A stretch of 41,035 nt of DNA from a virus (Duplodnaviria; Heunggongvirae; Uroviricota; Caudoviricetes). Position numbers and translations under genes: made by a program. Shown here in pieces: positions 1,874 through 41,035 of the stretch. Every line of letters starts with the position of its first letter. Positions within the stretch are counted from its first letter, which is position 1. Below the pieces are notes generated by a model, which saw nothing but the letters and a program-made list of their open reading frames with translations, was not told the DNA's origin and ran no database searches. The stretch is from the IMG/VR virus record IMGVR_UViG_2671181040_000013; one strand, given 5' to 3'.

Positions 1874-2070
1874 TACTGGCTGCGACATTTTTGAATAAAA
1901 GCGTCGATATTTCGGCGCTCATAACGAACTACTTTTGCACTGAAACGAATTGGTGCCAGGATAGCCCGATGACGATGCTTAATATTCCACTCACATAGCG
2001 TTTTCTGTGTAATACCTAACTTTTGGCATACTTCATCCGGGGTGAGTAAATCGTCGGGTTTCTCGCTCAT
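1870..2070 (-). CDS. xis: AlpA/Xis-like DNA-binding protein (putative excisionase)
   Basis: 66-aa basic protein with HTH-like segment (LTPDEVCQKLGITQKTLCEW); adjacent to int; 4-bp overlap with upstream helicase gene. Confidence 0.6.
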   Translation of the reverse strand: MSEKPDDLLTPDEVCQKLGITQKTLCEWNIKHRHRAILAPIRFSAKVVRYERRNIDAFIQKCRSQY

Positions 2071-3464: not shown

Positions 3465-3531
3465 GGTATTGTATCTCCATGAATGAACTTATGTAGTAAT
3501 AGCTTAATTATTTATTTCGAAAGGAACAGTT

Positions 3532-4410: not shown

Positions 4411-4433
4411 TAGATTCACATGGGGAGGGGGCT

Positions 4434-4682
4434 ATGATTGCTTTTGCTTTTTGGCTGGCTTTTTTTAGCCTGCTTCCCGTACTATATTGGGTTCTTAAGA
4501 TGGGGTTTGACCGGTTACGCTTTGCGCTTATGCCTAAACATCATCTTGTTCTTGAATGTGTTGACTCAGAAGGAGTTGTCCGTCGCGATGTCGTTGATGT
4601 CTCTTCTGATGATGAATTTTACAAAATTGCAATGAATGCCATTCGTGCTGGAAGATCAGTCAAAGGAGGGACGTTTGAGTAG
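4434..4682 (+). CDS. Hypothetical 82-aa protein with one N-terminal transmembrane helix, second gene of cassette
   Basis: GGAGG 6 nt upstream of ATG 4434; hydrophobic N-terminus (IAFAFWLAFFSLLPVLYWVL) then charged soluble tail. Confidence 0.55.
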   Translation: MIAFAFWLAFFSLLPVLYWVLKMGFDRLRFALMPKHHLVLECVDSEGVVRRDVVDVSSDDEFYKIAMNAIRAGRSVKGGTFE

Positions 4683-5205
4683 CGCTTCTAAACCTGATAG
4701 CTACGAAAAAGTCCCTCTGATTTCTAATGTTGCTGCTGGTGGCATCACTGGTTTTTTAACATTACTGGTGTCCTCGTGGGACGGTCGTTTTCCGTATATT
4801 GGTTCTGATTTAAATACAATAAAGCCATTTCTTTTATTAATGCTTCCCAGTTGCGCTATGTTTCTGGCGCATTGGATAAAGTCGATTGGGTTTAAATGGT
4901 CCTTAGGTAGCGTTAATCGACAGTTATTAAGCATTAATAAGAAGAAAGAAAAAGAACTTCGCCGTGATATTGAAAAGTACAAAAATGTTATTTCTAATGA
5001 AAAGATAGAGGACTTTAAAAGTCAACTTGAACAAGTATTACAAGATCGTCATGATATTATTTCTAATAATTACGCACAGAAACTAAGAGAAAGAAATTAT
5101 ACGCAAGAAAAATATCATGAGCATAAACAAACCGCTGCAAATGATAATATTGAGCTGCAAAGCATACTGGAGAATCAGAAGTTCAATCAAAAAGGCATTG
5201 ACTAA
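4636..5205 (+). CDS. Hypothetical membrane protein (two predicted TM helices plus charged coiled-coil C-terminus), third gene of cassette
   Basis: ORF frame open from ATG 4636; more likely start is TTG 4675 preceded by AGGAGG (4664-4669), overlapping the stop of the previous gene; TM segments VAAGGITGFLTLLVSSW and FLLLMLPSCAMFLAHWI. Confidence 0.6.
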   Translation: MPFVLEDQSKEGRLSSASKPDSYEKVPLISNVAAGGITGFLTLLVSSWDGRFPYIGSDLNTIKPFLLLMLPSCAMFLAHWIKSIGFKWSLGSVNRQLLSINKKKEKELRRDIEKYKNVISNEKIEDFKSQLEQVLQDRHDIISNNYAQKLRERNYTQEKYHEHKQTAANDNIELQSILENQKFNQKGID

Positions 5206-5985: not shown

Positions 5986-8049
5986 TTAATCCTTACGGTA
6001 GTGGTACGCCTCAAAACCGCCAGCGTTCAGTGGGATATCGGGCGCCCATTCGGGGTCAGTGGAGAGAAGCGCGGAAAGCGCTTTATCGTTGAAATCTTCT
6101 GTGTCAGGTGCTTCGGTGATCACCTCGTCGTGTACCGTCAGCACAATGCTGTAACCGGCATCTTCGATAAGCGGCATGTTTCCGGCCAGAATGTCGCGGG
6201 CGGCCGCCTGGGTGATGTTCTCCACCAGCTTTCCGCCGTAGGTTTTGAGTCGTTGCCATTTACGCGAATAAGAGTTAACCCCCATGTAGGTGATATTCCC
6301 TTTTTCGATAACCGGAGACGGGTAGCATACAGCGCGTCCGGATGGTAGCTGTATGCGCAGCCACGCGCCATCGCGGCGGATTTTAAGATAACCGCAATAC
6401 AATGTTTTTTGCGGTGTGGCGATTGCAGTGCGGACGGTGCGCTCCAGTTCGTACCAGAAATCACAGGTCGCGGGATGCGCCCGGCGCCAGAGACGTTTAA
6501 GTGAGTCGCAGGCGATAAATACCCGTTCAGAAAGCCCGTAGGTTGACTTGCGTTTAACCGATTCGTCGTACCAGCTTTTTGCCTCGCGGATAACATCGCG
6601 GGGAATGTTTGGTAGTGCGGCGTTCGCCAGCTCGTCGAGATCGAGACCGTAAACCAGTGCAAAAGTGATGAAGGCCGACACACCACCACCATAACCCAGA
6701 CCGAGTTCCATGACTTTACCGATCTGACGCATGTGTTTATCAACATCATCTGGTGCAATATCGAAAGCTTTTGCATACGCCAGTTTATATAAGTCCGGAC
6801 CCGTTCCGGCGTCGTACTCTCTGAATGCATTCAGTTTCCATTCTTCTCCCGCCAGCCATGCCAGCATACGGCCTTCAATGTTCGACAAGTCACTTACCAC
6901 CAGCTTTTTGCCTGTTGGCGCGATAATGCAGCCACGTAACGCTGAACTGGTTAGTTCCATGATATTGTCAAACAGCAGGTCTGCACATCCGGCTTTCAGT
7001 GCTTCGATGCCTTCGTCTATTTGTTCCTGTTTTAGTGAAGGGCGGGGAAGGTTCTGGGGCTGGAATAGCCGTCCGGCCCAACGACCGGTACGTGACGCCC
7101 CGCAGAACTGTAGCGTACCGCGTAAGCGCCCGTCGTGGCTTACGCCTTTCATCAGTGCCTTGTATTTACTGGTGCTGGTAGTACTGGCCTGCAGGCGGAT
7201 AGCCAGCAGTTCTTTCACGGCAGATGGTAAATCGGGGTCGGCAATACGACGTTCCAGAGTACTGCGTTGCATGTCCGGTAGCTCCACACCGTAGGATTCA
7301 ACAATGTGCTTAATCAACGCGTCCCGTTGTGTGGCTGCCTGCACTTCGCCATCAGTCATTTCCTGTGTACGCTTTGCCAGGCGCTTTTGCTCCTGGTCTA
7401 CCGCTTCGATCGCAGCGCGCGCGAGTTGCATGTCCATGCAGACGCCCCGGTCGTTGATCTGCTGATCACGATGCCAGAGCGCCAGCTCTGTCCCCTGATA
7501 ATTCCACTTCGGCAGACGTTTATAGACTTCGCGCATTGCCTCGATATCCAGTCCGGCGTAAGCAACAAAGCGCCGCCATTCTTCCGGGTGGGTTTTACTG
7601 GTGGCCCGACGCAGTTTGCTGTTTTTTGGGCGTGGCTTACAGAACAGCTGGATCAGCGCTTTACCTTCTTTGTCCTTCGCTTTGTCTTGCGGGACGCCTA
7701 GTACTTCGCAGAGTTCCCCCAGAGACCCCGGGAGACCGTGCGCCAGCGCCTGCACCATCGTGTCGCGCCAACGTTCGACTGGCGGTGCCAGTCGCGGCAT
7801 TGCATAACGCAGGACGGTGCGGTCGAAGTGAGAGTTATGAAAATAAAGCAGGGTTTCAGGGGCTGCGATTGCTTCGTATAAGCCGTGTGGAATACCACTA
7901 CCGGCAGTGATATCCCACACGTTTACGGGCCCGTCGTTGATAGCCCATGCGAACAGCATCACTTCAACGCCTTCGGCATACGCATGGGTACCGTTCGTAA
8001 TAGGGATTTCGCAATAGGTTTCTAGGTCACCCCATAGTATATTGGACAT
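5986..8049 (-). CDS. Family A DNA polymerase with 3'-5' exonuclease domain
   Basis: Exo motif DLETY near N-terminus; polymerase motifs ([25 protein letters not shown]) in the 687-aa translation. Confidence 0.9.
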
Positions 8050-8442: not shown

Positions 8443-9081
8443 TTAAGCATCTACCCCTTCGTCAGAAGGGAGGCCGATCATTTCGTTGAGAGTTTCGCGT
8501 CGTATAGCTGGCGGAAGCGGAGCAGATGGTGCATCGGCTGGCAGAAGTTCTTTAGCTTCAGGCCACTCTTCCAGCAGGCGCTTAACTGTGCGCACTTTAC
8601 TGAGTGCAGCGCTGACATTCTGTCGAATGTCTGACTCATCGCTCTGTATCTGCTCATAAAGTGCATCAAACCCGTAAAACTCTGTAACTAGAGGGTCATT
8701 TGCCAGAAGGGTAAATTCCCCCGGCGCGATTTTGTGAATATGGTCTGGTGACCCTGATTCATATCCTCGATAGTTACCGTTGAAATAGACGGTAACCCGA
8801 GAACCTGCCAGATTCAGACACATGTAACACTCTTTCCTGATAATATTATTGGCGGTTTTTAATGCTTCGGGGACTTTTGATACCAGTATTTCTATTTTTT
8901 TTATAATTTTTAATATTTCAGCTTCTTTCTCTACGCCCCCGATAGCTGCAAGCCGAACACGTTCGGCCCATTCAACACGAGCAGCTCGTAGTGCTGATTT
9001 ACGTTTGGGGATACCCGCTTTCTCAAGTGCGTTATTGATGATTTGAGTTTTAAGGTGATTAGTTAATACGGGCTGTGACAT
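8443..9081 (-). CDS. Hypothetical phage protein (about 212 aa)
   Basis: Long ORF in early operon; start chosen at MSQPVLT with GAGGG RBS. Confidence 0.6.
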   Translation of the reverse strand: MSQPVLTNHLKTQIINNALEKAGIPKRKSALRAARVEWAERVRLAAIGGVEKEAEILKIIKKIEILVSKVPEALKTANNIIRKECYMCLNLAGSRVTVYFNGNYRGYESGSPDHIHKIAPGEFTLLANDPLVTEFYGFDALYEQIQSDESDIRQNVSAALSKVRTVKRLLEEWPEAKELLPADAPSAPLPPAIRRETLNEMIGLPSDEGVDA

Positions 9082-9132
9082 TATTCTTTCCCTCATGAGA
9101 TCCCCCAGCATGTAGCTGGGGGATGAATATTT

Positions 9133-9681
9133 TTAAATTAGTGCTTCAGCATCAGCACCTTCGCTGATATCGTCGAAATCGTCAGCGCTTGCCACTCCGC
9201 CGCCAGCGAATGCATCGCCGTCTCGCAGGAACTGGACTCCGCCGAGTGAGGCATTAATGCGTTTACCGAAATTATTGTCCTGTGCCCAGATATCGATAAC
9301 GGCGTTTACATAGCACCCTGCATAGGGACGTCCGTCAGCCTGAATAAGTGGCGAACGATCGCGATCAAGAACAGCTGGGCGCGCTTTGTTAGCAGCATTC
9401 AGGAAGAAATTACCGGGGAAGCCTTCATACTCTGCTTTTTCATCACCATCATGCAGGCACAGATTGAGTTTTTTCTCCAGCTGGTTATAAATGGGCTCCC
9501 ACTTCTCTCCCCATTTTTCCTTCGCTACCTGCTTCATAGCTTTACGGATTTCTTCCAGTTGTGGGTGTTTGGGAGACATTAAAAATACTGCGGAGAAACG
9601 CGGATCGCCTTCGCCGTTTACAGTTTTAGCTTCAAACAGAGACGGGAAGGCCAGACGAACATTGTTCAGCTTCAGTTTCAT
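9133..9681 (-). CDS. Phage ssDNA-binding-like protein (DUF2815-like)
   Basis: N-terminus MKLKLNNVRLAFPSLFE and acidic C-terminal tail DDFDDISEGADAEALI. Confidence 0.7.
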   Translation of the reverse strand: MKLKLNNVRLAFPSLFEAKTVNGEGDPRFSAVFLMSPKHPQLEEIRKAMKQVAKEKWGEKWEPIYNQLEKKLNLCLHDGDEKAEYEGFPGNFFLNAANKARPAVLDRDRSPLIQADGRPYAGCYVNAVIDIWAQDNNFGKRINASLGGVQFLRDGDAFAGGGVASADDFDDISEGADAEALI

Positions 9682-9696
9682 GGGGATTTCCTTAAA

Positions 9697-10998
9697 TCAG
9701 ATGAGGTCTGCGGTTAGCGTATCGTCGGATACGTCGTCGAAATCATTTACAGGGTTGATATTGAGTGCGGGGCGTGGGTCTGACTCGGGAACGACGGTGG
9801 GTTTACCATCAGCTCGTGTTATCAGTGCCTCGACTTTTGACCAACGGCGCGGACTGGCCTTTTTGATAAGTTTTTCGGCTTTTGTGGGACTAATAAGTTT
9901 AAAGTCGAATACTTCTTCAGTTTTGTACCTGAACTGGTCCTTCAGAAGTGCGCGAGCTGCCACTTCGTCACTCCAGGCCCGGTTACCTTGTTTTCCTGTT
10001 ACCAGTTTAAACCCCGGTACCGGATGTCCGGCATTGAGTTCATTGTGAACCCGGTCCCGTACTGCCTTTAGCCAGGATTCAATAAAGTCGGCCTGGCTAT
10101 AGATCTCTGCAAGCTGCTCAATGGTTAACAGAGGTACACGTGCGCTGGCATTGGTGATTATTTCGCTGACAGGCTTTGTCAGATCTTCAAAATCGCTGGC
10201 CGCTGTTTGTAAATGCTGCATTTTCTGGGCAGTGCAAATAGCTTTTGCTTTACAGAAGCGGCACTGTTTTTCTCCAGGTATGAAGTTTTCCAGCGGTAGT
10301 GTCTCAATGCCTTCGCATTCAGCAATATTGAGAACAAGGATCGCACTGGTTGCGGCCTCCAGTGCCCGTTCTCCGAAAGACTGAAGTTCCTGTACGGTTA
10401 ACGACCATTCTGAAACGTGGTTGAGCCTTGGTTGGTGAATAAATAATCTTACAGTTTCAAAGTCATACAGCATGCTGAATTGTTCAAGCGCACCCAGAGC
10501 ATACAGTTGTAGTTGCTCATTTTGTTCTGCATCAATGCGGACGCCTTTGCCATATTTCAGGTCGTGGATTTGTAATTCGTTACCAGCGATGATTATGCCG
10601 TCGGCAGTTCCGAAAGATTCTTCCACACCCGTTATATGTGAGAAATCAACACGTTGTTCAACCAATAGTTCATTATTCTTTGCAAGAGTCCAGACCGTAT
10701 CAACATACCGGCCGACGGCTTCGACCATTTCATCATCCACCTGTGGGCCAGATTTATCATCAGGATTTTCGCGAAGGGGGTATGAGCCGAGAAACATAGA
10801 AACATTGCATCCGGCGTAGTGTTCCGGGTGGCTTTGCCTGTTTCGTAGAACTTTTTCAGCAAGCGCGTGCGCTGCAGTGCCCTCGATTGCAAAAGTTGTT
10901 TCTTTATCCGGTTGTGTGGCCTCCAGCGCCAGACTTCCTGGGCAGCGCATCCATCGATGCGCTGATGATGGAGAAAGTTGTGCGTGAACGTCTGGCAT
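9697..10998 (-). CDS. PD-(D/E)XK / Cas4-like nuclease (DUF2800-like) with C-terminal Cys cluster
   Basis: [14 protein letters not shown] motif near N-terminus, [10 protein letters not shown] cluster, acidic C-terminal tail. Confidence 0.75.
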
Positions 10999-12798: not shown

Positions 12799-13428
12799 TT
12801 ATCTTTTTCTGCGGAATATGCGATGTTCTACCATTGTCCCTATGATCTTAATTGGTTTTTCCCAGGAGCGACAAATAGGGTAATCACTATTCAATGGAAC
12901 AAGTTCAAAGTCTTCCTCACCCTTAGCGCCAATCCCTATCGGGCGGTATTTTTTGAACGTTGCTTCGTGGCTACCGTTACATGCCGCAACGAATTCACCA
13001 GGAGTAGGGTATACGTCAGTGTCAATTATAACGATGTCCCCCTCTTTAAATTCAGGTTCCATTGAATCCCCACGTATACGTAGCGCAAATGAACTTTCTG
13101 ATAGCTCAGCCGTGGTGAGAATGTATTCGAAATCACCTTCTTCACGAAGTAGTTCAGCGCTTGTGAAAGCCCCTGCTTGTACGTAGCTTAGAACAGGCAC
13201 CCTTCGGGCTCCGTAGTTGAAATCTGTAACAACATCGCCCCCAAGAAGTAGCCATTTAGGATCGCATTCAAGAGCTGACGCTAAAGCAAGAAGATTGCGT
13301 GGTTTAAGTGTTTTCCCATTCTCTATAGCTTCAATCGACTGCTGGCTAATGCCCGCTCGTTTCGCAACTTCGACCTGAGTTAAGTTTAGTTCTGTTCTGC
13401 GTTTTTTAGCTCGGTTGGCAAGATTCAT
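12799..13428 (-). CDS. CI-like repressor (HTH plus S24/LexA-type autopeptidase domain)
   Basis: N-terminal HTH (LTQVEVAKRAGISQQSIEAIENG); C-terminal S24 motifs (GDSM ... K); AAGGAG RBS before ATG at 13428. Confidence 0.85.
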   Translation of the reverse strand: MNLANRAKKRRTELNLTQVEVAKRAGISQQSIEAIENGKTLKPRNLLALASALECDPKWLLLGGDVVTDFNYGARRVPVLSYVQAGAFTSAELLREEGDFEYILTTAELSESSFALRIRGDSMEPEFKEGDIVIIDTDVYPTPGEFVAACNGSHEATFKKYRPIGIGAKGEEDFELVPLNSDYPICRSWEKPIKIIGTMVEHRIFRRKR

Positions 13429-13453
13429 GTTGACTCCTTTTCTGTCATTGATG

Positions 13454-13518
13454 ATTACAGATACCTCTGTATTTGACAAACAAGGTTGCCTGTGAGGTAA
13501 TTACAAGTAAACCTGTAA
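13454..13518. promoter_or_regulatory. Divergent PRM/PR-like promoters with operator repeats
   Basis: Rightward TTGACA (13472-13477) -N17- GGTAAT (13495-13500); leftward -35 TTGTTT and -10 TGTAAT on the minus strand (plus coordinates 13478-13483 and 13454-13459); 17-mer TACAAGTAAACCTGTAA at 13502-13518. Confidence 0.5.
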
Positions 13519-16812: not shown

Positions 16813-17235
16813 ATGCGCAGAGATATGCAACTTGTTCTGGAGCGGTGGGGGCGATGGGCCGCGAGCGAGGAATACTGTTCAATGGTTGACTGGCCTTCGA
16901 TGTCGGTGATGCCTCAACGCGTAACCGCCAGCGGCAAACCCGGTTGCTCCGACGAGGACGGAGCCGCAATTGACACCTGCATCGCCCACATGAGCATGGT
17001 GTGTCCGCATGACGACTTGCTGGTTCTTGGCCTACGTTTCATCGGCGGCTTTTCTACGCGCTCAATCGCTGAATCTGTGAATCGTAGCCACCTTAGCGTC
17101 AGAACATCGCTTAGAGCGTCAGAGGCATTTCTTGAGGGAGCGCTGGTGCTCCAGGGAATTCGACTGGATATGGACCCTGAAGTTGCTTTACCTGAAAAGG
17201 TTGTGTGCGCACAAAAACATGTGCTATGGTTGTAG
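16813..17235 (+). CDS. Q-like late antitermination protein
   Basis: N-terminus MRRDMQLVLERWGRWAA resembles lambdoid Q-family proteins as I remember them; Cys/His-rich centre; located just upstream of lysis genes. Confidence 0.6.
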   Translation: MRRDMQLVLERWGRWAASEEYCSMVDWPSMSVMPQRVTASGKPGCSDEDGAAIDTCIAHMSMVCPHDDLLVLGLRFIGGFSTRSIAESVNRSHLSVRTSLRASEAFLEGALVLQGIRLDMDPEVALPEKVVCAQKHVLWL

Positions 17236-20005: not shown

Positions 20006-20557
20006 ATGGCACTCACCGACAAACAAGAGATGTTCTGTCGCGAGTACCTCATCGATTTAAACGCCACGCAAGCGGCTATTCGGGCGGGGTACAGCGCAAA
20101 GACAGCTAACCGTACCGCATCCGAAAACCTGTCAAAACCTGACATCAAGTTAAGAATCGCCGAACTGAAAGCGCAACGCAATGATCTTGTTGGTATTAAT
20201 GCAGAATATGTACTTAATCGCCTTATTGAAATCGACCAGATGGATGTGCTTGACATTCTCCTGCAAAACGGTGAGCTAAAACCCATTAAAGACTGGCCTA
20301 AGGTATGGCGCACAACGTTATCAGGAATGGATGTCGTGGAGATGGCATCCGCAGATAGCGCCGCACTTCTGAAGAAAATCAAATGGCCTGATAAGGTTAA
20401 AAACCTTGAGTTGCTCGGGCGTCATGTTTCTGTTCAGGCGTTTAAAGACAATGTCAAAAATGAAGTGACTGGTGCTGACGGAGGACCAGTCAGAACAGAA
20501 ATTACCAACTTAACGCCGGAGCAGGTTACAGAAGCGTATAAAAAAATGATGGGCTAA
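20006..20557 (+). CDS. terS: Terminase small subunit
   Basis: N-terminus [30 protein letters not shown] typical of small terminase; immediately upstream of large terminase. Confidence 0.8.
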
Positions 20558-31274: not shown

Positions 31275-31462
31275 CGTTTAACAGCCTGCCGGACGGGCTG
31301 TCCTACCTTCTCAATCCGGTTGACGCCGGGTTAATTCCCTATACAGCACTTAAAGATGGCTCTGTCGATTTGTACGATATTGCTCTCTTGAATGACCATC
31401 TGGCGGTAAAAGCGGATAACCAGCGGCGCATTGAGAAATGGAGAGAGGATAATGAACGCTGA
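30822..31462 (+). CDS. Tail assembly chaperone frameshifted long product (about 214 aa)
   Basis: The -1 frame from slip site encodes ...KFFAYTPYQYDAEPATGLTFNSLPDGLSYLLNPVDAGLIPYTALKDGSVDLYDIALLNDHLAVKADNQRRIEKWREDNER, ending at 31462. Confidence 0.5.
31220..31229 (+). promoter_or_regulatory. Programmed -1 ribosomal frameshift slippery site (A_AAT_TTT / T_TTT_TTG)
   Basis: AAATTTTTTG in zero frame of chaperone gene; -1 frame stays open to 31462. Confidence 0.55.
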
Positions 31463-33458
31463 AACTATTAAAGATTTCCTCGTCTCGCTTGGCTTCAGTG
31501 TGGATGATGCAGGAGCGAAAAAGTTCGGTTCTGTCCTCGCCGGTACAACTGCAAATGTCATCAAAATGGGACTGGCCGTTGAAGGAGCTGCGCTGTCCGT
31601 GGTGGCCTTCACGGCTAAGATCGCCTCCGGCCTGGATAATCTTTACTGGGCGTCACAGCGCACCGGCGCGACAGTCCAGGGAATTCAGTCTATTGGCTAT
31701 GCGGTTTCGCAGGTTGGCGGCAGTGTGGACGCTGCGCGATCTTCTCTGGAAAGCCTCTCCCGGTTTATTCGTAACAATCCCGGGGCGGAAGGCTTCCTGA
31801 ATCGCCTTGGTGTACAGACCCGTGACGCCAGCGGTAACATGCGCGACATGGCCGCTATCTTTACGGGCGTTGGCCAGAAGCTCAGCAGCATGCCGTATTA
31901 CCGGGCTAACCAGTATGCGCAGATGCTGGGCATTGACGAAAATACCCTGATGGCTATGCGTCGCGGAGTGGGGCAGTTCAGCGCTCAGTATTCAGAAATG
32001 GTGAAAGCGATCGGATTTAATGCCGATCAGGCTGCCTTATCGTCAAACCGGTTTATGACCTCGCTGAAATCGCTCGGTGAAATGGCCGGGATGGCGCGGG
32101 ACAAAATCGGATCGAATCTTGCGGACGGACTGGCGGGGCAGATTGATAACCTGCGCAAAAAGATAATTGAAAATTTTCCCAAAATTGAAGTCACCATCAC
32201 AAAGGTCATAAAGGGGATCCTCTGGCTGGGTGAGATAGTCGGGCGGGTAGCATTTCGGATAGTCGATGGTGTCGGAGATATCATCGAGTGGTGGGGGAAA
32301 CTGGATGCCGAAACGAAAACCCTGATAGAGGTTATCGGCGGTCTGGTTGTCGCCATGCGGATACTTAACTCTACTTTCTGGATGTCACCTATAGGGCTGA
32401 TTACCGGTCTGATCGTGGCTCTCGGTCTCTTGTGGGAAGACTACAAAACATGGAAAGAAGGCGGTAACAGTCTTATCGACTGGGAAAAATGGCAACCGGC
32501 AATAGATAAAGCGAAGGATGCGATCACCTGGCTTCGTGATCACCTTCTGGAACTAAAAGATGGTGTTGGCGGCTGGCAAAATGCACTGGAAATCCTCGGT
32601 ACATTCATCGCGGGTGTCTGGGTATCCAAGGTTCTGGGGGCTTTCGGAAAAATATCAGGTTTACCGGTCCCACCCTGGCTTAAATTGTGGGCGCTTTACG
32701 CGGGCTATATTGTTAGTGACAGAGAAAATATTGCCGATAGCGCAAAATCTTCACTGAGGTATACGAAGCGAATTATCGGCGACACGCTGGCTGCTATTGG
32801 TATAAAAACAGATATCGGACGCAGGGATGTCAGTGAGGTCCGTGAATGGCCTGCGTGGATGGACTGGTTGCACGGGGGACCCGGTAAAGTTATCCGGCAG
32901 GGACAGAGTAACGGTGTAGTGCATGGCTCCAACGTCCAGCCCGACATCCCCGGCGGCGGTACTCTTGCTGATCGCAACAATAACCCCGGGAACATTCGCC
33001 CGGTGAGTGGTAAAGGGTTCCGGTTTTTCGAATCAGCTCTTGAGGGCTGGGAGGCGATGAAAAAACAGCTCATGCGTTACTTTACCGGGAAAACAACCGG
33101 ACGGGCATTACAGACTATTCAGGATATTGTCAGTACCTGGGCCCCGGCAGGTGATAACAACGATCCGAAAAAGTATGCACAGGATGTTGCGAAATGGATG
33201 GGAGTATCACCGAATGCAATATTGAATCTTACAGATCCCCAGACTATGGGAGCATTGATGCAATCAATGGCGCGCAAAGAAGGTTATTCAAACTGGAACA
33301 GCCCGCTGGCGTATCAGGCCGCCGCTGGCAGCCTTAACCAGCAGACTGTTATAAATGTTCATGGAGTTAACAACCCTCAGGAGGCGGCTAATCTGATCGC
33401 TGACAAGCAGGGGGCTGTAAATGCCAGGGCGGTACAGCAATTGAAAGGACCTGCGTAA
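31451..33458 (+). CDS. Tail tape measure protein
   Basis: About 669 aa, Ala/Gly-rich with hydrophobic segments; follows chaperone frameshift; ATG 31451 with GGAGAGAGGA RBS (ORF frame open from TTG 31431). Confidence 0.85.
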
Positions 33459-34108
33459 TGGACTTTTTATCTGTTTTACTGCAGCAGCGAACCCGCTCAA
33501 TAGGAATCATTATTCCTGATGTGGTTATTACCGAAAAGCACACTGACGCCCTGGAAATTACGGAACATCCGGTTGAACAGCCCACGAATGCTGGTGCCAG
33601 TGGTGAGGGCGCTGGTTACATATCAGAACACGCATTCAGGCGCCCTTCTGAGGTTGTGATGGAAACCGGTTTTTCCGGAGGCGGATCGCTGCTTGATTTT
33701 GCCAGTAACCTGACTGCTACCAGTTTACTGGGGCTGAGCCCGAAAGAACTGTATCAGGAACTGCTTAACCTGCAGCGGAATCGTATTCCTTTCGATGTGA
33801 CAACCGGCAAGCGTATTTACAACAATATGTTGATAAAAACGCTGGAGGTCACGACCGATAAGAGTAGTGAAAATGTGCTTCTGGCGACACTTACCCTCAG
33901 GGAAGTAATTATTACCTCCACGCAGTCAGTCAGGGTTGCCCCGAAAAACAATATGACCGAGGGAGTCGGAACGTCTGCTGTGCAGAATACAGGCACCAAA
34001 ACAACGGTGCCGCCGAATAATTCCATTCTGAAATCGCTGCCACAGATGGCGCAAGAAGGTATCTCCACTGTTGATGGGTATTTGAGCAATTTATTTCTGG
34101 GAAGGTGA
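33458..34108 (+). CDS. Tail / baseplate-associated protein
   Basis: 216 aa immediately after tape measure with overlapping stop/start. Confidence 0.55.
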   Translation: MDFLSVLLQQRTRSIGIIIPDVVITEKHTDALEITEHPVEQPTNAGASGEGAGYISEHAFRRPSEVVMETGFSGGGSLLDFASNLTATSLLGLSPKELYQELLNLQRNRIPFDVTTGKRIYNNMLIKTLEVTTDKSSENVLLATLTLREVIITSTQSVRVAPKNNMTEGVGTSAVQNTGTKTTVPPNNSILKSLPQMAQEGISTVDGYLSNLFLGR

Positions 34109-34111
34109 TTC

Positions 34112-34414
34112 ATGAAAGCCGTAGAAATCCCACTGGTTGCTGACAATCAGACTTTTGCCACCACAATTAACGGTTCGGTTTATCACCTGTCTGTCATCTG
34201 GCGAGGAGAGTACTGGGTTCTGGATCTTGCTGACAGCAATGGTTCCGCCATTATATCAGGTATACCGATGATTACGGGGGCTGACCTGCTGGCACAGTAT
34301 CGATATATGGATCTGGGTTTTTCTCTGGTGGTGCTCTGCGACGTGGCAGGGCAGGAGAATCCGACGCAATTCGATCTTGGAACGCTCTCACACCTCTATG
34401 TTTTCACGGAGTAA
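34112..34414 (+). CDS. Small baseplate-associated protein
   Basis: 100-aa ORF in tail operon. Confidence 0.5.
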   Translation: MKAVEIPLVADNQTFATTINGSVYHLSVIWRGEYWVLDLADSNGSAIISGIPMITGADLLAQYRYMDLGFSLVVLCDVAGQENPTQFDLGTLSHLYVFTE

Positions 34415-34416
34415 CA

Positions 34417-35448
34417 ATGTCGAAAAACTGGATGCGTCACTTTGAATTATTGCTTGTTGATGATAAGGGCGACGGGATAAAAATTTCTGAGCTTAAAGTC
34501 ACTTTCAATATTCAGAAAATGCCTGCGACCATATTTAATGGATTCGTTGGAAATTTTAAGGTTTATAACCTGTCTCCTACCACTCAGAACCGGATTATGC
34601 AGAAGGAGTTTTCGCGTATACAGGTTATTGCCGGATACAAGGGGCAACCGGATGCAGCAGGTAATTATCCTGATGAAAACGTTGGCATGATATTCAATGG
34701 AGATATCCGTTTTACTGTCACTGGTAAAGATAATGCCACAGACAGTTGGATCATGTTGCAGTGTATTGACAGCTGGGAAGGTCACCTGAACGCAAGTGTG
34801 AAAACCACAGTGGCTGCTGGCTGGAAGTACAGCGATCTTTTCAGTCTGGGTATGAAATCATTCGAACCATATGGCATCGAATCCGGCGCAGTTCCTGACA
34901 TGCCTGAAACGGTATTTCCCCGGGGGCGCGTTGTTTATCAAAACACATCAAGGTTGATGAATCATATCGCAGGGCAGTGTAAGGCTAACTGGTGGTATGA
35001 AAATAATCTGGTAAATATTGTTCCTGAAGATAAATATATTGGTGTTGCTACGGTGTTGAATGCTAACACCGGGCTTATCGGTATGCCACAGCAGACGATG
35101 GGAGCTGGCGTAAATGTCAGATGTCTGATTAATCCAAATATTAAGCTCGGTGGGCTTATTCGTCTGGATCAGGCATCTGTATACCGTGCCTCTTTGAGTA
35201 ATGACCAGGTAGCGAAATCGCCAGCACGACTGGATGAGTCTGAAAGCGACGGTAATCTCTACGTTAACGGTCTGCCAGGCATGTCACAGCCTGCCAGCAT
35301 TAATACTGACGGTGATTACATTGTGGGCAGCATTGATTATACTGGCGACACCCGAGGGCAGGCGTGGTATATGGACCTGCTTTGCCTGGCTAAAGGTGGC
35401 AAAGAATTGCTTAACTCGAAAGGGATTGATGCGGAGAAATACACATGA
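34417..35448 (+). CDS. Putative baseplate hub protein
   Basis: 343 aa in baseplate region; position-based. Confidence 0.55.
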   Translation: MSKNWMRHFELLLVDDKGDGIKISELKVTFNIQKMPATIFNGFVGNFKVYNLSPTTQNRIMQKEFSRIQVIAGYKGQPDAAGNYPDENVGMIFNGDIRFTVTGKDNATDSWIMLQCIDSWEGHLNASVKTTVAAGWKYSDLFSLGMKSFEPYGIESGAVPDMPETVFPRGRVVYQNTSRLMNHIAGQCKANWWYENNLVNIVPEDKYIGVATVLNANTGLIGMPQQTMGAGVNVRCLINPNIKLGGLIRLDQASVYRASLSNDQVAKSPARLDESESDGNLYVNGLPGMSQPASINTDGDYIVGSIDYTGDTRGQAWYMDLLCLAKGGKELLNSKGIDAEKYT

Positions 35449-35780
35449 AAAGACCATTGTTGACAGTTTTACTTGTCTGTATCTCCTTCATTTCCTTTGC
35501 TGATACCGGTTGCGGACCATTTACGATCAACTGGAAAGCGCAAGACGGACTTGCAAGGATTAATGGACAGAAACCGGAGACACAGAAAATCATCTTTCTC
35601 AAACAGGAAGGTGATTATGACAATGTGAACATCCAATGGATGATTCCGGGTAATGGGCGTTGGTTAGGGATGGATTTTGTGGCCAGAAATGGCAAGCCGA
35701 TCCTCAACGTTGAAGTTATCCGCAAAAATATGGACGAGCCTCGGGAGTTCTGGACGTATGATTGCCGGAAGGTGAAGTGA
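35445..35780 (+). CDS. Secreted 111-aa protein with signal peptide, accessory gene inside baseplate operon
   Basis: N-terminus MKRPLLTVLLVCISFISFA; two Cys (possible disulfide); ATGA overlap with upstream gene. Confidence 0.6.
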   Translation: MKRPLLTVLLVCISFISFADTGCGPFTINWKAQDGLARINGQKPETQKIIFLKQEGDYDNVNIQWMIPGNGRWLGMDFVARNGKPILNVEVIRKNMDEPREFWTYDCRKVK

Positions 35781-35855
35781 ATTACATTGGCGTCCAGCTT
35801 CTGCAGAACAGCATGGATGCGCCGAAAATCATCGGTTCCTTTCCATGCAAAAAGA

Positions 35856-35883
35856 TTGTTGATTAATCACTCGTAATTATAAT
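35856..35883 (+). promoter_or_regulatory. Sigma70-like promoter for the 35920 accessory gene
   Basis: TTGTTG (35856-35861), 16-nt spacer, perfect TATAAT (35878-35883). Confidence 0.5.
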
Positions 35884-35919
35884 GTGATACTTCTACTTTC
35901 ACGATAAGGAATTTGTCGC

Positions 35920-36159
35920 ATGTTCGGATTTGATAAATTAATAACTCCAAAAATCATCAACGTTCTGTATGGCATCACAATGTTACTTCTGGTTGTTGCC
36001 GCCATTATAACGTTTGTTAATGGGAAGGCTGCTGGCGCTTTAGTGCTTTTGTTATGTGCTGTATTTTGCCGAATATTCTTTGAGTGCATCATGGTTTCAT
36101 TTAAAAACAATGAGTATCTTCGCCGAATAGCTGAAGCGTTAGAAGCAAACAAGCAGTAA
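35920..36159 (+). CDS. Small (79 aa) two-TM membrane protein, accessory gene with own promoter and terminator
   Basis: ATG with AAGGAA RBS; hydrophobic helices; flanked by promoter and terminator. Confidence 0.6.
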   Translation: MFGFDKLITPKIINVLYGITMLLLVVAAIITFVNGKAAGALVLLLCAVFCRIFFECIMVSFKNNEYLRRIAEALEANKQ

Positions 36160-36177
36160 TGAAACTTCAATAATGAA

Positions 36178-36199
36178 CCCGCCACCCGGCGGGTTTTTT
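36178..36199 (+). terminator. Intrinsic terminator
   Basis: CCCGCC-ACCC-GGCGGG followed by TTTTTT. Confidence 0.7.
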
Positions 36200-36218
36200 A
36201 CTTTCTGGAGACATATGA

Positions 36219-36971
36219 ATGCCCGTTTCTTTAAGCGCTCAACTTGGTAGCAAAGAACAGGCCGATGTAAGACTTGCTGGCTCTGTCATGTCGGCGCTGC
36301 GTGTTTCTATGCCCGGCATCGTCCAGTCATTTGATCCGGACACTGTAACAGTGGTTGTTCAACCTGCGATTAAAGGCTATGAGCCGGACTCAAATGGAAT
36401 CAACCAGTCGACGACATTACCCCTGCTGGTGGATGTACCAGTGGTATTCCCGCGCGGCGGAGGCTGTACGTTGACTTTTCCGGTAAAAGCCGGGGATGAG
36501 TGTCTTGTCGTTTTTGCCGATCGTTGTATTGATTTCTGGTGGCAGAGTGGCGGGATACAGGAGCCGGTCGATGACAGAATGCATGATTTATCGGATGCGT
36601 TTTGTATTGTCGGTCCCCAGTCGCAGGCGAGGAAGATTAGCGGTATTAATACCAGTGCCACACAGTTGCGTAGTGACGACGGCAGCACCTATTTTGAGCT
36701 TAATCCTGACACCAGGAAAATTAAAATTGTCGCTCCGGGTGGTCTTGATGTGGTTGCCCCTCTGGCTGATTTTTCTGAGAAAGTAACCATTCATGGCCTG
36801 TTAACCTGGATGGGTGGCATGGTGGGGTCTGTTGTTTCTGGTGTGGCTTCAAAAATCACTGGTGCTGTTGAGTTCTTGGGGAGCGTTAAGGCTAACGGCA
36901 AGCCAATCGATGATACGCACACTCATGGCGGTGTTCAGCGCGGTGGAAGCAGTACCGACGGGGTAAACTGA
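36219..36971 (+). CDS. Baseplate spike / gpV-like protein
   Basis: 250 aa; GGAG RBS; position before gp25-like and J-like baseplate genes. Confidence 0.55.
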   Translation: MPVSLSAQLGSKEQADVRLAGSVMSALRVSMPGIVQSFDPDTVTVVVQPAIKGYEPDSNGINQSTTLPLLVDVPVVFPRGGGCTLTFPVKAGDECLVVFADRCIDFWWQSGGIQEPVDDRMHDLSDAFCIVGPQSQARKISGINTSATQLRSDDGSTYFELNPDTRKIKIVAPGGLDVVAPLADFSEKVTIHGLLTWMGGMVGSVVSGVASKITGAVEFLGSVKANGKPIDDTHTHGGVQRGGSSTDGVN

Positions 36972-37324
36972 TGCGATACAGACGTGAAGACGCCGATGGC
37001 GATTACACCTTTGGCAGCGGTGATGACACCTGGCTGATTAACTCGCCTGAGGCCGTGGCGCAGGCTGTGAAAACGCGATTCGAATTGTGGTATGGGCAAT
37101 GGTTTCTCGATACCACCGAAGGGACTCCGTGGATCCGGTCTGTGCTCGGTAAGCAGAAGCCGGAAACCTACAACCTGGCGATCCGTAAGCGCATCCTCGA
37201 AACTCGGGGCGTTAAATCAATCCTCTCTTTCAATACGACGGTGGATACCACGACCCGACGTGTCATGTTTTCCGCTGAAATCGACACTCTTTATGGAATA
37301 ACGACTGTTACATCGGAGGCGTAA
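36971..37324 (+). CDS. Baseplate wedge protein (gpW / gp25-like)
   Basis: 117 aa immediately upstream of J-like gene; synteny. Confidence 0.55.
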   Translation: MRYRREDADGDYTFGSGDDTWLINSPEAVAQAVKTRFELWYGQWFLDTTEGTPWIRSVLGKQKPETYNLAIRKRILETRGVKSILSFNTTVDTTTRRVMFSAEIDTLYGITTVTSEA

Positions 37325-38523
37325 TGGCTCTGAACCTTGATTCTCTCGGTTTATCTGCAAAGGTAACCGCAGAGGGGATCAGTGCGCCTGATTATCAGAC
37401 GATACTCAGCACCCTGATTAGCTATTTTCAGCAGATTTATGGCAGTGATGCCTACCTCGAACCGGACAGCAAAGACGGCCAGATGGTGGCTCTGATGGCA
37501 CTGGCGATTCATGATGCCAATAATACGGCGATAACTGTCTACAACTGTTTTTCACCGGCAACCGGCTATGGGGCTGCACTGACCAGTAACGTGAAAATAA
37601 ATGGTATTTCACGTAAAGGCGCGACGAACTCTACGGTTGATTTGCTTCTTACAGGAACTGCCGGAACAACCATCATTAATGGCAGCGTGAAAGACAGTAA
37701 TAATGTGATATGGCGTTTGCCTGCTTCAGTGGTGGTCGGCGTGGATGGTACAGTGATGGCGACCGCAACATGTTCCGTCAGTGGTGCAGTGGCGGCGCTG
37801 GCTGGAACAATCACTGAAATTAATACGCCAACCCGTGGCTGGGTTTCGGTAACTAATCCTGCTGCGGCTACTGTTGGCTCTCCGGCAGAAACTGATGCGG
37901 AGTTACGTATCCGTCAGTCGCAAAGTGTTGCGTTGCCATCAATAACCCCATTTGAAGCACTGGATGGTGCTGTTTCTAATGTTACCGGTGTAACCCGCCA
38001 CAAACTCTATGAAAATGATACTGGTTCGGAGGACGGTAACGGGTTACCGCCACACTCTGTTGCTGTGATTGTGGATGGCGGTGATGTGACGGATATTGCT
38101 CAGGCTATCAGAGGGAATAAAGGTCAGGGGACAGCCACTCACGGTACAACATCCGTTACGATTCCGGATAAATACGGCAATCCCCATGTAATCAAGTTCT
38201 CGCGTTCCAGTGATGTACCTGTTTATGCCCGGATCAAATTACAAGTTTTTACGGGTTATACCTCACAGATAGGGCAGCAGATCCAGCAGGCTATTTCCGA
38301 CTATATCAATAGTCTGATGATTGGTGATTCGGTCCTTTTAAGTCGCATTTACTCACCGGCGAATCTTGGCGTGGTGAGTGGCGGGAATGCACGCTATTAC
38401 GATATTCAGGAACTGACGATTGGGAAATCCCCGGGGGCTTTGTCGTCATCAAACATTGATATCAGATACAACGAATCTGTGTCCTGTACCCCGGAAAATA
38501 TCGTTATAACGGTGGAGTCATGA
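37324..38523 (+). CDS. Baseplate J-like protein
   Basis: 399 aa; size and position typical for baseplate J family. Confidence 0.7.
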   Translation: MALNLDSLGLSAKVTAEGISAPDYQTILSTLISYFQQIYGSDAYLEPDSKDGQMVALMALAIHDANNTAITVYNCFSPATGYGAALTSNVKINGISRKGATNSTVDLLLTGTAGTTIINGSVKDSNNVIWRLPASVVVGVDGTVMATATCSVSGAVAALAGTITEINTPTRGWVSVTNPAAATVGSPAETDAELRIRQSQSVALPSITPFEALDGAVSNVTGVTRHKLYENDTGSEDGNGLPPHSVAVIVDGGDVTDIAQAIRGNKGQGTATHGTTSVTIPDKYGNPHVIKFSRSSDVPVYARIKLQVFTGYTSQIGQQIQQAISDYINSLMIGDSVLLSRIYSPANLGVVSGGNARYYDIQELTIGKSPGALSSSNIDIRYNESVSCTPENIVITVES

Positions 38524-39200
38524 GCAAATACACCGAACTAATCACGAACTACCACGCCACCAAACCTAAATTTCTTGCGCATGTTGATCTGATGACCCGG
38601 CCACTTATTGATGTTGCGGCTGCCACCAGAGGGCTGATTACTGCATTTGATATTGACTCTGCGGTTGGTGTGCAACTTGACATTCTTGGATTGTGGATCG
38701 GACGTAGCCGTGTTGTCAGCCAGCCTATCTCAGGTGTCTATTTCAGCTGGGATACCGACGGGCTTGGATATGATCAGGGGATATGGCAGGGACCATACGA
38801 TCCTGATTCAGGATACATGTATCTCAGCGATGAAACTTATCGTGTCATTCTTAAAGCGAAGATTGCGATTAATAACTGGGACGGACGGAATGATTCGCTT
38901 CCGGCAATTCTTGACGCGGCAACAGCAGGATCCGGGCTGCGAATGCAGATAGTCGATAACCAGGACATGACGATATCGGTCTGGGTCTTTCCTGATACTG
39001 ATATTTCAGATGTATCGCGTGAGTTAATTGCGGCAATTAAACAGGGGTATCTCACAGTAAAAGCCGCCGGGGTATGGGCGGGGGGCATTGAAACACCTTC
39101 GGTGGAAACTCCATCGGAAGGCTCTAAATTTTTTGGTTTTGATATGGATAACGAATTCATCAGTGGTTTTGATGTAGGGGCATGGGGAGTATTACTCTGA
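38520..39200 (+). CDS. Baseplate / tail protein (gpI-like)
   Basis: 226 aa between J-like and fibre genes. Confidence 0.55.
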
Positions 39201-40018
39201 TGGCGAAAAATGACTTTAAAGCGTTTGCAACTGATCGAAATGCCAATGTTATGTCGCAGGAGGAATGGGAAGCGTTGCCTGCGCTTTTATCCGGATTTAC
39301 AGCAGGGAAAGCATCCAGTGCGCAAGTCAATAAGGTTATTCGGCAGGCCAGCTTTATTGCTGCAGCTCTGGCCCAGTTTGTAAGTGATAAAACGCAACGG
39401 GATGTGCTTGATAATGGTGATCTTCCCGGTTTTGTTGAATTGCTGGGATCGGGGTTTGCTGTTGAATACCTGAGCCGCAAGAATCCGTTTGGTGATATCA
39501 AATCGGATGGCACAGTACCAACGGCTCTCGAAAATCTTGGTTTGGGAGAAGGCTCTGCATTACCTGTTGGTGTGCCTGTTCCGTGGCCCTCCGCAACCCC
39601 GCCAACGGGCTGGCTGAAATGCAACGGCGCTGCCTTTGATAAGGTGAAATATCCCCATCTTGCTACAGCATATCCATCAGGGAAACTACCTGATCTCCGT
39701 GGTGAGTTTATTCGTGGATGGGATGACGGGCGTGGTATTGATGCAGGACGTGCTTTATTGAGCATTCAGACTGGGATGCTGGAAAAACACCGCCATATTG
39801 TTGTTGCCAACGATGGGTATGATTCAAAAGAGGAATGGGAACTGGCGACAATCTTCAGAAGAGCATATACGCAAGGCCGGGGGCTTGATGCTACCGATGC
39901 CGGAGGAACCCTGATTCCATCACCAACGCTACATACACGAGGGAGTATTGGTAACACAGGTGGGAGCGAAACCCGTCCACGAAATATTGCATTTAACTAT
40001 ATCGTGAGAGCTGCATAA
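39200..40018 (+). CDS. Tail fibre protein with collar-like C-terminal domain
   Basis: 272 aa; segment [38 protein letters not shown] resembles phage tail-collar domains. Confidence 0.75.
39525..39550. promoter_or_regulatory. Candidate Gin/Hin-family recombination site (invertible-segment boundary) inside fibre gene
   Basis: 26-bp imperfect palindrome CTCTCGAAAATC-TT-GGTTTGGGAGAA with AAA(T/C)C-NN-GGTTT core reminiscent of gix/hix sites (from memory). Confidence 0.3.
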
Positions 40019-40620
40019 TGGATAAAGCCGTATTAAATAGCGAACTTATTGCCACGAAGGCGGGGAATATTACCGTCTATAACTATGATGGTGAAACACG
40101 GGAATATATTTCCACTTCAAATGAATATCTTGCCGTTGGTGTCGGTATCCCGGCATATTCCTGTTTAGATGCTCCTGGCACATATAAGGCTGGTTATGCA
40201 ATCTGCCGTTCAGTAGATTTAAACTCATGGGAATATATGCCAGACCATCGCGGTGAAATTATCTATAGCACCGAAACAGGAGAAGCAAAAGAAATCACAG
40301 CTCCGGGTGATTACCCTGAAAATACAACCACTATCGTCCCGTTAACGCCATATGATAAATGGGATGGTGAGAAATGGGTGACAGATTCTGAGGCACAACA
40401 CGGTGCCGCAGTAGAAGCGGCAGAAGCACAGCGCCAGTCACTGATTGATGCAGCAATGGCTTCCATTAGTCTGATTCAGCTGAAATTACAGGCCGGGCGG
40501 AAACTGGCGCAGGCAGAAACAACCCGGCTTAACGCTGTGCTGGATTACATTGACGCGGTGACGGCAACAAATACCAGCACCGCGCCTGATGTCATCTGGC
40601 CTGAGCTGCCGGAGGCGTAG
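40018..40620 (+). CDS. Tail fibre assembly protein (Tfa)
   Basis: 200 aa directly after fibre gene; C-terminal TSTAPDVIWPELP motif shared with convergent paralogue. Confidence 0.75.
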   Translation: MDKAVLNSELIATKAGNITVYNYDGETREYISTSNEYLAVGVGIPAYSCLDAPGTYKAGYAICRSVDLNSWEYMPDHRGEIIYSTETGEAKEITAPGDYPENTTTIVPLTPYDKWDGEKWVTDSEAQHGAAVEAAEAQRQSLIDAAMASISLIQLKLQAGRKLAQAETTRLNAVLDYIDAVTATNTSTAPDVIWPELPEA

Positions 40621-41035
40621 GCCATTCAATATCGGGTGCTGTTGACGTATCAACACGCATCAGCAGCACACGGTATTTCTTCCATTGGGTGAGAGTTGAA
40701 GTTTCTTCATCAGTTGCGATACCAGCATCAACAGCATCCTGACGCCAGGATATTTCACTGTCAGCTTTTGCACGAAATGTGGCTTTCATGTTTTCTGCAT
40801 CTGATATTTTCTGTTCTGGTGAAAGCGGAGGCTCATCAACCCATGCAAGGGCCCCTGAAACCATTCCCAGCATTTTGCCTGTCGGCTTATTTCCTCCATT
40901 AAATCTGACAACATCCTCATCGCTGATTTCAATACCATCCTGCGGCCATGTCCCCTCCTTGATATAACTTTCATATAGCGCTGCGTTGTAGATTGCATTT
41001 TCGGACGGACTGTAAACACTTTTAACTTTATTCAT
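40592..41035 (-). CDS. Second tail fibre assembly protein (Tfa'), convergent
   Basis: 147 aa on minus strand; C-terminus TSTAPDIEWPTPP; 3' ends of the two Tfa genes overlap by about 29 bp. Confidence 0.7.
   Translation of the reverse strand: MNKVKSVYSPSENAIYNAALYESYIKEGTWPQDGIEISDEDVVRFNGGNKPTGKMLGMVSGALAWVDEPPLSPEQKISDAENMKATFRAKADSEISWRQDAVDAGIATDEETSTLTQWKKYRVLLMRVDTSTAPDIEWPTPPAAQAR

Follow-up and report, generated by a model that had tools for sequence, protein, structure and literature searches.

Why would a temperate phage keep a gene for an exported protein and a gene for a small membrane protein in the middle of its baseplate operon? The question is raised by the IMG/VR record IMGVR_UViG_2671181040_000013, a stretch of 41,035 nucleotides (the window) that represents an almost complete prophage, of E. 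coli type, of a temperate myovirus. Between its genes for the baseplate hub and the baseplate spike, the window encodes ORF111, a 111-residue protein with a signal peptide, and a 79-residue protein of the DUF4282 family (Table 1). We propose, with a probability of about 0.5, that positions 35315-36199 constitute an accessory transcription unit within the late tail operon and that both proteins exclude superinfecting phages at the cell envelope. The fixed frame of this unit would consist of a sigma-70-type promoter in the end of the hub gene, a post-hub position reserved for an exported protein, and a conserved terminator. The frame would enclose a hotspot, filled in the window by a low-GC module that comprises the DUF4282 gene, another promoter-like site and what is left of an older ORF111 allele.

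The locus was compared with 21 species-level loci, obtained by a profile scan with one genome per species, and with the loci of 80 IMG/VR relatives from a lineage that has at least 568 relatives in this database. The region has a match in about 4% of complete E. coli genomes, and the lysogen E. coli R1 (NZ_CP031706) contains the 774-bp cassette region (positions 35445-36218 of the window) with 99.9% identity. The gene order plug, hub, ORF111, slot and spike is present in 20 of the 21 species-level loci and in roughly 70 of the 80 IMG/VR loci, where the slot is the interval between ORF111 and the spike gene. Its length ranges from 61 bp (an empty slot in locus L030) to 2.2 kb in the species-level loci, and from 64 to 2418 bp in the IMG/VR relatives. 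The flanks are conserved at the DNA level, and at least 12 different contents were found between them. These include PD-Lambda-1 (loci L032 and L036; E 5e-83), PDC-S42 (locus L034 from Pantoea ananatis; E 2e-36), a ClpP-like protein, Mu-F-like membrane proteins, signal-peptide proteins and many genes without a family match. Between the same flanks, E. coli strain ERP001 carries a gene for 151 amino acids on the reverse strand, and phage vB_EcoM-611R5 a forward gene for 170 amino acids that overlaps the stop codon of ORF111. The varied cargo, with PD-Lambda-1 and PDC-S42 among it, identifies the slot as an accessory and defence hotspot with conserved flanks, variable content and known defence genes. 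Since recognised defence genes are part of the cargo, the unlabelled cargoes are good candidates for new ones.

Anti-phage hotspots in P2-like phages and P4-like satellites have reportedly been described by Rousset and colleagues in 2022. The slot resembles them in its conserved flanks and in its highly variable cargo with recognised defence systems, and the cassettes are probably exchanged by recombination in the conserved flanks. It differs from them in that it belongs to a baseplate lineage of the E217/Pam3 type and is located between hub and spike, that its flanks are the end of a gene bearing a candidate promoter and a terminator, and that a constant gene for an exported protein lies alongside it. 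In Hafnia psychrotolerans (L040:4539-6233), the slot contains an Arc-like repressor and a P22-type antirepressor (Ant), an immI-like region inside a tail operon. The hub of phage 611R5 is annotated as two coding sequences (L004:2836-3900; 2836-3474 and 3481-3900) but aligns with the hub of the window in one piece by tblastn; the split may be an artefact of annotation, or represent a sequencing frameshift or stop codon.

An intrinsic terminator forms the 3' border of the hotspot. The scan gives it 9 pairs, and for the 7-bp G+C-rich core among these, together with T6, the folding energy is -13.4 kcal/mol. All 23 aligned loci from other species have the element, AACCCGC-loop-GCGGGTTTTTT, immediately upstream of the spike gene, and in most of these it is followed by ATTGCCYGGAG, which contains the ribosome-binding site of the spike gene. 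It is there whatever the cargo, and also when the slot is empty. Because the same element precedes the spike gene in all 23 loci, its occurrence is far beyond chance, and the predicted terminator is a feature of the phage backbone. The first-pass annotation of this DNA had described a strong intrinsic terminator belonging to the second gene. The terminator is real, but we reject its assignment to the DUF4282 moron, since every relative that was examined has it ahead of the spike gene. The T-run is too close to the start codon of the spike gene for a promoter to fit in between, and the prophage encodes a Q-type antiterminator, so late transcription must read through by antitermination. The terminator would then be able to stop only unmodified polymerase. 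The Q gene, which the earlier annotation had missed, explains how late transcription would pass this site.

Also missed was a candidate promoter, ATTACA-N17-TATACT, inside the last 130 nucleotides of the hub gene and about 100 nucleotides upstream of ORF111. Its position weight matrix (PWM) score of 11.5 in the window exceeds the 99th percentile of the background (11.35), and the best PWM site upstream of ORF111 is found at the same position in 15 of 15 loci tested, with scores of 8.5-12.5. The hexamer TATACT corresponds to the Tyr and Thr codons of a conserved DYTG motif in the hub protein. A codon alignment of 21 diverged loci shows that the Tyr codon is TAT in 21 of 21 and the Thr codon ACT in 19 of 20. 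For comparison, TAT is used in 19%, 62% and 43% of the sequences at three other conserved Tyr columns, ACT in 14% at another conserved Thr column, and the wobble positions near the hexamer are free to vary. In the rest of the hub gene, TAT accounts for 55% of the Tyr codons and ACT for 20% of the Thr codons. Among 71 distinct IMG/VR sequences, the hexamer is TATACT in 66, TATCAT in four and TATAAT in one, and the amino-acid changes at this site lead only to these other -10-like forms. TACACT is found here in phages 611R5 and Mulock, which are more distant. The synonymous sites of the hexamer are frozen, a constraint at the DNA level as expected of a -10 element, and we regard the site as a candidate promoter. 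Rfam gave no match within positions 35000-36600.

ORF111 starts where the hub gene stops, in an ATGA overlap with GGAG 9 nucleotides upstream of the start codon. Its first codons (35445-35501) encode a Sec-type signal peptide, with cleavage between MKRPLLTVLLVCISFISFA and DTGC, which leaves a mature part of about 92 amino acids. Each of the 68 homologues in the alignment has an AXA-like cleavage site, with A, S or G at position -1 and mostly A or S at position -3, and exactly two cysteines in its predicted mature part; on average, 1.6 of the first seven residues are Lys or Arg. With its basic n-region and uncharged h-region, ORF111 has the features of periplasmic proteins that are exported by Sec and cleaved by signal peptidase I, and it is predicted to be exported. 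A structure prediction of the secreted protein, suggested in the first-pass annotation, has now been made. The AlphaFold2 (AF2) model is an eight-strand barrel with a predicted local distance difference test (pLDDT) score of 88, and in fold it is similar to avidin, calycin-like proteins and other small barrels that bind ligands. ORF111 would be a disulfide-bonded eight-strand beta-barrel in the periplasm. Its small size of about 90 residues, the barrel and the conserved disulfide, as predicted, are shared with the lysozyme inhibitors PliC and MliC, to which it shows no family-profile match and no specific fold match.

Among 1.84 billion proteins, the ORF111 family forms 54 clusters at 50% identity; at 90% identity it has 84 clusters, and all named organisms are Enterobacterales. 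No match to the allele in the window was found among the NCBIfam models at E <= 0.01. Sequence searches against the PDB returned no match for ORF111 or DUF4282, and PADLOC none for ORF111. The E9 allele is named "STY1065/STY2022 family" in RefSeq; a literature search retrieved nothing relevant on STY1065/STY2022.

Homologs of ORF111 are located directly 3' of the hub gene in 20 of the 20 species-level loci that contain this gene, in about 70 of the 80 IMG/VR loci (~88%), and, with 28-29% identity, in phages Mulock and SEN34. About 10 of the 80 IMG/VR relatives (~12%) lack the family, and in the seven of these that were inspected non-homologous exported proteins take its place. In loci L060, L069, L070, L093 and L111 (~4022-4276), the replacement is a signal-peptide protein of 80-84 amino acids with Cys/Thr-rich repeats (CTTTNTGTTYC..), often followed in the slot by secreted proteins of 113 and 136 amino acids. 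Loci L109 and L122 (~4050-4800) have lipoproteins of 233 and 242 amino acids at the post-hub position without a match to the ORF111 family. In locus L045 (6001-6879), a lipoprotein of 292 amino acids is located there, of which the C-terminal 95 residues are an ORF111 domain. Because a lipoprotein fusion and non-homologous exported replacements occur at the post-hub position, it is a predicted exported protein, rather than one fold, that is constant there. ORF111 itself is the lineage-conserved occupant of this position, neither inserted cargo nor a part of the baseplate.

That ORF111 and DUF4282 are conserved structural or assembly parts of the baseplate, the outcome that the first-pass annotation had named as contrary to its own view, is highly improbable: the synteny of ORF111 after the hub down to 28% identity in SEN34 and Mulock is what such parts would show, but all members of the family have a cleavable signal peptide and a Cys pair, the lipoprotein version and the non-homologous exported replacements exist, and DUF4282 is missing from most relatives. 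We had considered ORF111 as a conserved core gene, possibly structural, and dropped this when the IMG/VR census revealed the replacements. The paper on SEN34 contains no virion proteomics.

The alleles of ORF111 have been exchanged and displaced. Between the window and E9, they are 65% identical, as compared to 98-100% identity for the hub, DUF4282 and spike, and the divergent segment has sharp borders. Downstream of ORF111 in the window is a non-coding relic, the 3' end of a displaced allele (..VQLLQNSMDAPKIIGSFPCKK), which matches the C-terminus of the ORF111 homologue of phage 611R5 with 84% identity over 25 amino acids (E 4.6e-11, tblastn). The relic, not included in the first-pass annotation, accompanies the DUF4282 module in E. 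coli prophages. A third small gene at 35777-35866, with a GTGA overlap and third-position differences from strain ERP001, was considered and rejected, as this segment is the relic. In Serratia aquatilis (NZ_CP173186; L035:1-4850), at least seven tandem paralogues of the ORF111 family are located upstream of the spike gene. Most have their own intact signal peptide, one is frameshifted or truncated, and a transposase-like open reading frame (ORF) of 402 amino acids on the reverse strand interrupts the array, which can be likened to arrays of orphan immunity genes. The allele swap, the displaced relic and the tandem paralogues are signs of an evolutionary arms race or conflict.

The DUF4282 gene has AAGGA 8 nucleotides upstream of its ATG. 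The product matches PF14110 with 42.2 bits (cut-off 27), its residues 2-71 aligning to profile positions 2-85 of 86, and PF14110 is recognised in all but one of 87 homologous clusters. Two hydrophobic helices are indicated by hydropathy and by the AF2 model (residues 10-33 and 37-78, pLDDT 87). Invariant motifs in the family are an N-terminal ITP, R51 and E55 inside helix 2, and FKNNEYLRRI in the C-terminal helix; according to the positive-inside rule, the conserved N- and C-terminal motifs are predicted to be cytoplasmic. An ORF on the reverse strand at 35877-36185 was discarded as a shadow of the DUF4282 frame. No paper on DUF4282 was found in a full-text literature search.

Members of this family are found in nine of the 80 IMG/VR loci and two of the 21 species-level loci, and the other loci have different cargo or an empty slot. 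DUF4282 is true cargo, a mobile module that repeatedly adjoins genes for those tail parts that penetrate membranes. In Pectobacterium and Erwinia, it occupies the same slot between hub and spike, and in siphovirus prophages of Klebsiella and in Edwardsiella phage GF-2 it directly follows the tape-measure gene. In each of these contexts, a CCCGC hairpin, a T-run and GGAG(G) come after it. In Pantoea, the gene is near gtrABC, and in GF-2 the genes for Arc and Ant come right after it. The G+C content of the leader and the DUF4282 gene is 0.361, as compared to 0.45 for the hub gene, 0.51 for the spike gene and 0.493 for the whole window. In E. coli prophages, the stretch 35792-36210 with the relic, the promoter-like site, the DUF4282 gene and the terminator moves as a unit and occurs in prophages that differ in ORF111 allele and spike. 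The module has the properties of a moron as defined by Hendrix and Juhala, in being absent between the same flanks in collinear relatives and deviant in base composition; it also has a plausible promoter and a terminator downstream, and is a putative moron.

The promoter-like site upstream of DUF4282, TTGTTG-N16-TATAAT, has a perfect -10 element and a -35 element that matches the consensus in three of six positions. It was not called by the consensus scan, and its PWM score of 10.8 is in the top 2.4% of 160-nucleotide windows of this sequence. The distance of a TTG..TAnnAT pair from the start codon is the same (-35 element at -59 to -64) in five of seven unrelated DUF4282 contexts, namely the window, the Klebsiella siphovirus prophages, GF-2, Pantoea and Franconibacter.

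These data refine the picture in the first-pass annotation. The 111-residue protein with its signal peptide and ATGA overlap is found as described, the 79-residue protein is predicted to have two hydrophobic helices, and the region is accessory rather than structural. The promoter-like site described as near-consensus is present, but is moderate given its -35 element. DUF4282 fits a moron, and ORF111 is a lineage-conserved occupant of the post-hub position and not an insertion. That the two genes are a functional pair did not stand, since ORF111 occurs without DUF4282 in most relatives, and DUF4282 without ORF111 in siphovirus prophages, GF-2 and chromosomes.

How could such a unit work? In the lysogen, transcription by unmodified RNA polymerase would initiate at the embedded promoter or promoters, run through ORF111 and the cargo and end at the terminator, which Q-modified polymerase would pass in lytic growth. 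Cargo without a promoter of its own, such as the 170-residue gene of 611R5 and the DUF4282 genes of Pectobacterium and Erwinia, would be driven by the promoter in the hub gene. Expression of the cassette independent of late transcription is plausible from these predicted signals. DUF4282 would act at the inner membrane against the formation of a channel by the tape-measure protein or the tail tip, and ORF111 would counter the incoming tail tip from the periplasm. The most economical reading of ORF111 is a periplasmic tail-tip blocker, with the endolysin-like domain of the tape-measure protein as a possible target. This domain occupies the C-terminus of the protein (32850-33455; PDB 7q47, E 7e-6; also 9vvp, Gp29), and relatives have others instead (SLT in L045 and GF-2). 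Because the domain is swapped among relatives and only the last ~40 residues are kept, the muralytic module appears to be mosaic itself.

Exported proteins with a role in superinfection exclusion include P1 Sim, Ltp of Streptococcus phage TP-J34, T5 Llp and Cor, some of which are encoded next to tail or receptor-binding genes. ORF111 is similar to these in being a phage-encoded protein with a signal peptide or lipoprotein form that would act outside the cytoplasm, but they show no sequence or fold match to ORF111, and the ORF111 family is tiny. In T4, the exported protein Sp (Spackle) acts on the tail-tip lysozyme. Together, DUF4282 and ORF111 resemble T4 Imm and Sp as a combination of an inner-membrane and a periplasmic protein. 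Imm, a small membrane protein, binds the tape-measure protein and thereby prevents translocation of the genome (bioRxiv 10.64898/2026.03.06.709160). In HK97, entry of DNA is blocked in a tail-dependent manner by gp15, an inner-membrane moron that is encoded next to the tape-measure gene and derives from the YebO family of the host (Juhala et al. 2000; Cumby et al. 2012; reviewed in PMC3594210). Like gp15, DUF4282 is a small inner-membrane protein encoded by a low-GC gene in a tail operon, next to tail-tip or tape-measure genes; the gene has a promoter-like site of its own, a terminator immediately precedes the tail gene that follows, the phage is temperate with Q antitermination, and the protein has chromosomal homologues. 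Unlike gp15, it has a terminator that is conserved in the phage backbone, a candidate promoter inside the structural gene upstream, and a location in a hotspot with multiple cargoes rather than at a single insertion. There is no detectable sequence relationship between the two, and a tblastn search with DUF4282 against phage records produced no HK97-like match. DUF4282 may work like gp15 and Imm by analogy, without being a member of those families.

Several observations weigh against superinfection exclusion by a unit expressed in the lysogen. Both promoters are sequence predictions, the one upstream of DUF4282 has a weak -35 element, and the DUF4282 genes of Pectobacterium and Erwinia have no recognisable promoter of their own. 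The frozen synonymous sites in the hub gene might serve some other function of the DNA or RNA. The overlap with the hub stop codon means that ORF111 is certainly also made late, and a purely lytic-cycle role is possible. Comparisons with hhalign gave no detectable homology of DUF4282 to HK97 gp15 of the YebO family (probability 0.3%) or to T4 Imm (probability 0.2%), and PADLOC did not match DUF4282. The chromosomal copies of DUF4282 outside prophages in Franconibacter suggest a role in host physiology. Finally, inhibition of the muralytic domain of the tape-measure protein by ORF111 is weakened as an explanation, as allele identity does not track the type of this domain.

The Franconibacter copies lead to the alternative that best survives, which is lysogenic conversion of the envelope physiology of the host. 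DUF4282 would then be a small membrane regulator, comparable to small proteins that modulate transporters or sensor kinases, and ORF111 a periplasmic binding or protective protein under stress. These copies are at a fixed chromosomal site without phage genes, and the location near gtrABC in Pantoea, the conservation of the cytoplasmic rather than the periplasmic motifs in DUF4282, the similarity of ORF111 to ligand-binding barrels, and the derivation of HK97 gp15 from a host family all fit with such a role. We nevertheless consider it unlikely, given that three unrelated tail types repeatedly have DUF4282 beside their tape-measure or hub genes, that it has recognised anti-phage genes as neighbours in the slot, and that the allele turnover, relics and tandem arrays of ORF111 point to conflict and not to housekeeping.

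A role confined to the lytic cycle, with both proteins made late to keep progeny or secondary virions from injecting into infected or lysing cells, for example, or to tune lysis, and with lysogen expression irrelevant, seems rather improbable. The ATGA overlap and the location in a Q-dependent late operon guarantee late expression of ORF111, T5 Llp and T4 Imm and Sp are made in lytic infection, and the promoterless DUF4282 genes of Pectobacterium and Erwinia would be accommodated. However, such a role leaves unexplained why a strong, conserved terminator is placed right after the cassette and why the upstream -10 hexamer is constrained at synonymous sites, and prophages normally express such defence cargo as PD-Lambda-1.

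Very doubtful is the reading of DUF4282 as a membrane-damaging abortive-infection effector or holin-like toxin rather than a protein that blocks the entry of DNA. A small helical hairpin with the charged residues R51 and E55 inside helix 2 is typical of oligomerising pore formers, and the hotspot carries defence genes, but no gene for a sensor or antitoxin partner travels with DUF4282, PADLOC does not recognise it, and a toxin would be an unlikely product of constitutive transcription from a sigma-70 promoter.

Superinfection exclusion can tentatively be extended to the whole lineage, although we are doubtful of this broader form. The post-hub exported proteins (the ORF111 family, its lipoprotein-fused forms and the non-homologous replacements) and DUF4282 would be two new classes of superinfection-exclusion factors directed at the tail tip, displayed by a lineage-conserved "expression socket" that consists of the promoter, hidden in the hub gene through selection on synonymous sites, and the resident terminator. 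Such a socket would make any inserted gene a moron that is expressed in the lysogen and insulated from the late operon. The arrays and relics of ORF111 would then be traces of an arms race in which periplasmic blockers face the spikes or tape-measure proteins of competing phages, and DUF4282 would be a channel blocker at the inner membrane, similar to gp15 and Imm, that is common to myoviruses and siphoviruses.

Morons and defence hotspots are already known, but here the hotspot appears to have its own fixed expression hardware, consisting of a candidate promoter under synonymous-site constraint in a structural gene, a conserved terminator and a mandatory position for an exported protein. This architecture is well supported in silico. 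If confirmed, it would provide a simple rule for mining enterobacterial prophages for accessory and anti-phage genes expressed in lysogens, make the DUF4282 and ORF111 families candidates for phage exclusion at the envelope, and offer a tractable case of promoter evolution inside a coding sequence.

Table 1. Features of the 41,035-nucleotide window, in order of position.
Feature	Position	Strand	Evidence or remark
Integrase	470-1873		Left end
SNF2-type helicase ORF	2067-3464	-	
292-amino-acid ORF	3532-4410	+	Sub-threshold DUF7946, 22.3 bits vs cut-off 27; adjoins SNF2-type helicase ORF and integrase
Replication module ORFs	5986-8049, 8443-9111, 9133-9681, 9697-10998	- (all)	
CI-like S24 repressor	12799-13479	-	
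Q-type antiterminator	16813-17235	+	PF06530 Phage_antitermQ, E 1.8e-30; upstream of holin and Rz genes
Small-terminase gene	20006-20557		PF03592
Tape-measure protein	31431-33458		
Dit-like protein	33458-34108		
Plug	34112-34414		
Baseplate hub, 343 amino acids	34417-35448	+	PF22759 E217_GP41; phrog_196 "baseplate hub", E 5e-80
Candidate sigma-70 promoter ATTACA-N17-TATACT	35315-35343	+	Consensus scan; PWM 11.5
ORF111, small exported beta-barrel protein (predicted)	35445-35780	+	phrog_3443, E 3.5e-42; signal peptide; AF2; synteny after hub
Non-coding relic, 3' end of displaced ORF111 allele	35783-35857	+	tblastn
Candidate DUF4282 promoter TTGTTG-N16-TATAAT	35856-35883	+	-35 at 35856-35861, -10 at 35878-35883
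DUF4282 gene, 79 amino acids, two-helix inner-membrane hairpin (predicted)	35920-36159	+	PF14110; phrog_12129; AF2
Intrinsic terminator (predicted)	36175-36199	+	Followed by spike GGAG at 36207-36210
Baseplate spike, 250 amino acids	36219-36971	+	PF18352, E 1e-44, plus Apex motif
Sheath initiator	36971-37324		
Baseplate J	37324-38523		
Tail-fibre gene	39182-40018		
Tail-fibre assembly gene	40018-40620		
Inverted tail-fibre assembly gene	40592-41035	-	

The tail module of the prophage is a contractile one of the E217/Pam3 type. Large ORFs 3' of the small-terminase gene are at the positions expected for the terminase large subunit and the portal, assigned by position only and without a family scan. 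The left-to-early region also encodes PrimPol, and in the replication module (8443-9111, 9133-9681, 9697-10998 and 5986-8049) Nmad5, which is a nucleotide-modification-associated domain, is found together with an Enc34-type single-stranded DNA-binding protein, a DUF2800/PD-(D/E)XK nuclease and a family A DNA polymerase, a gene set that hints at DNA modification in this prophage. The PDC-S42 protein in the slot of L034 also matches DUF7946 below the threshold. Because the 292-residue ORF near the integrase matches the same family, likewise below the threshold, a second cargo region may be suggested at the integrase end of the prophage. At the opposite end, the segment 39182-41035 resembles an invertible host-range segment, within which the window ends, and in relatives pinE is located alongside it.

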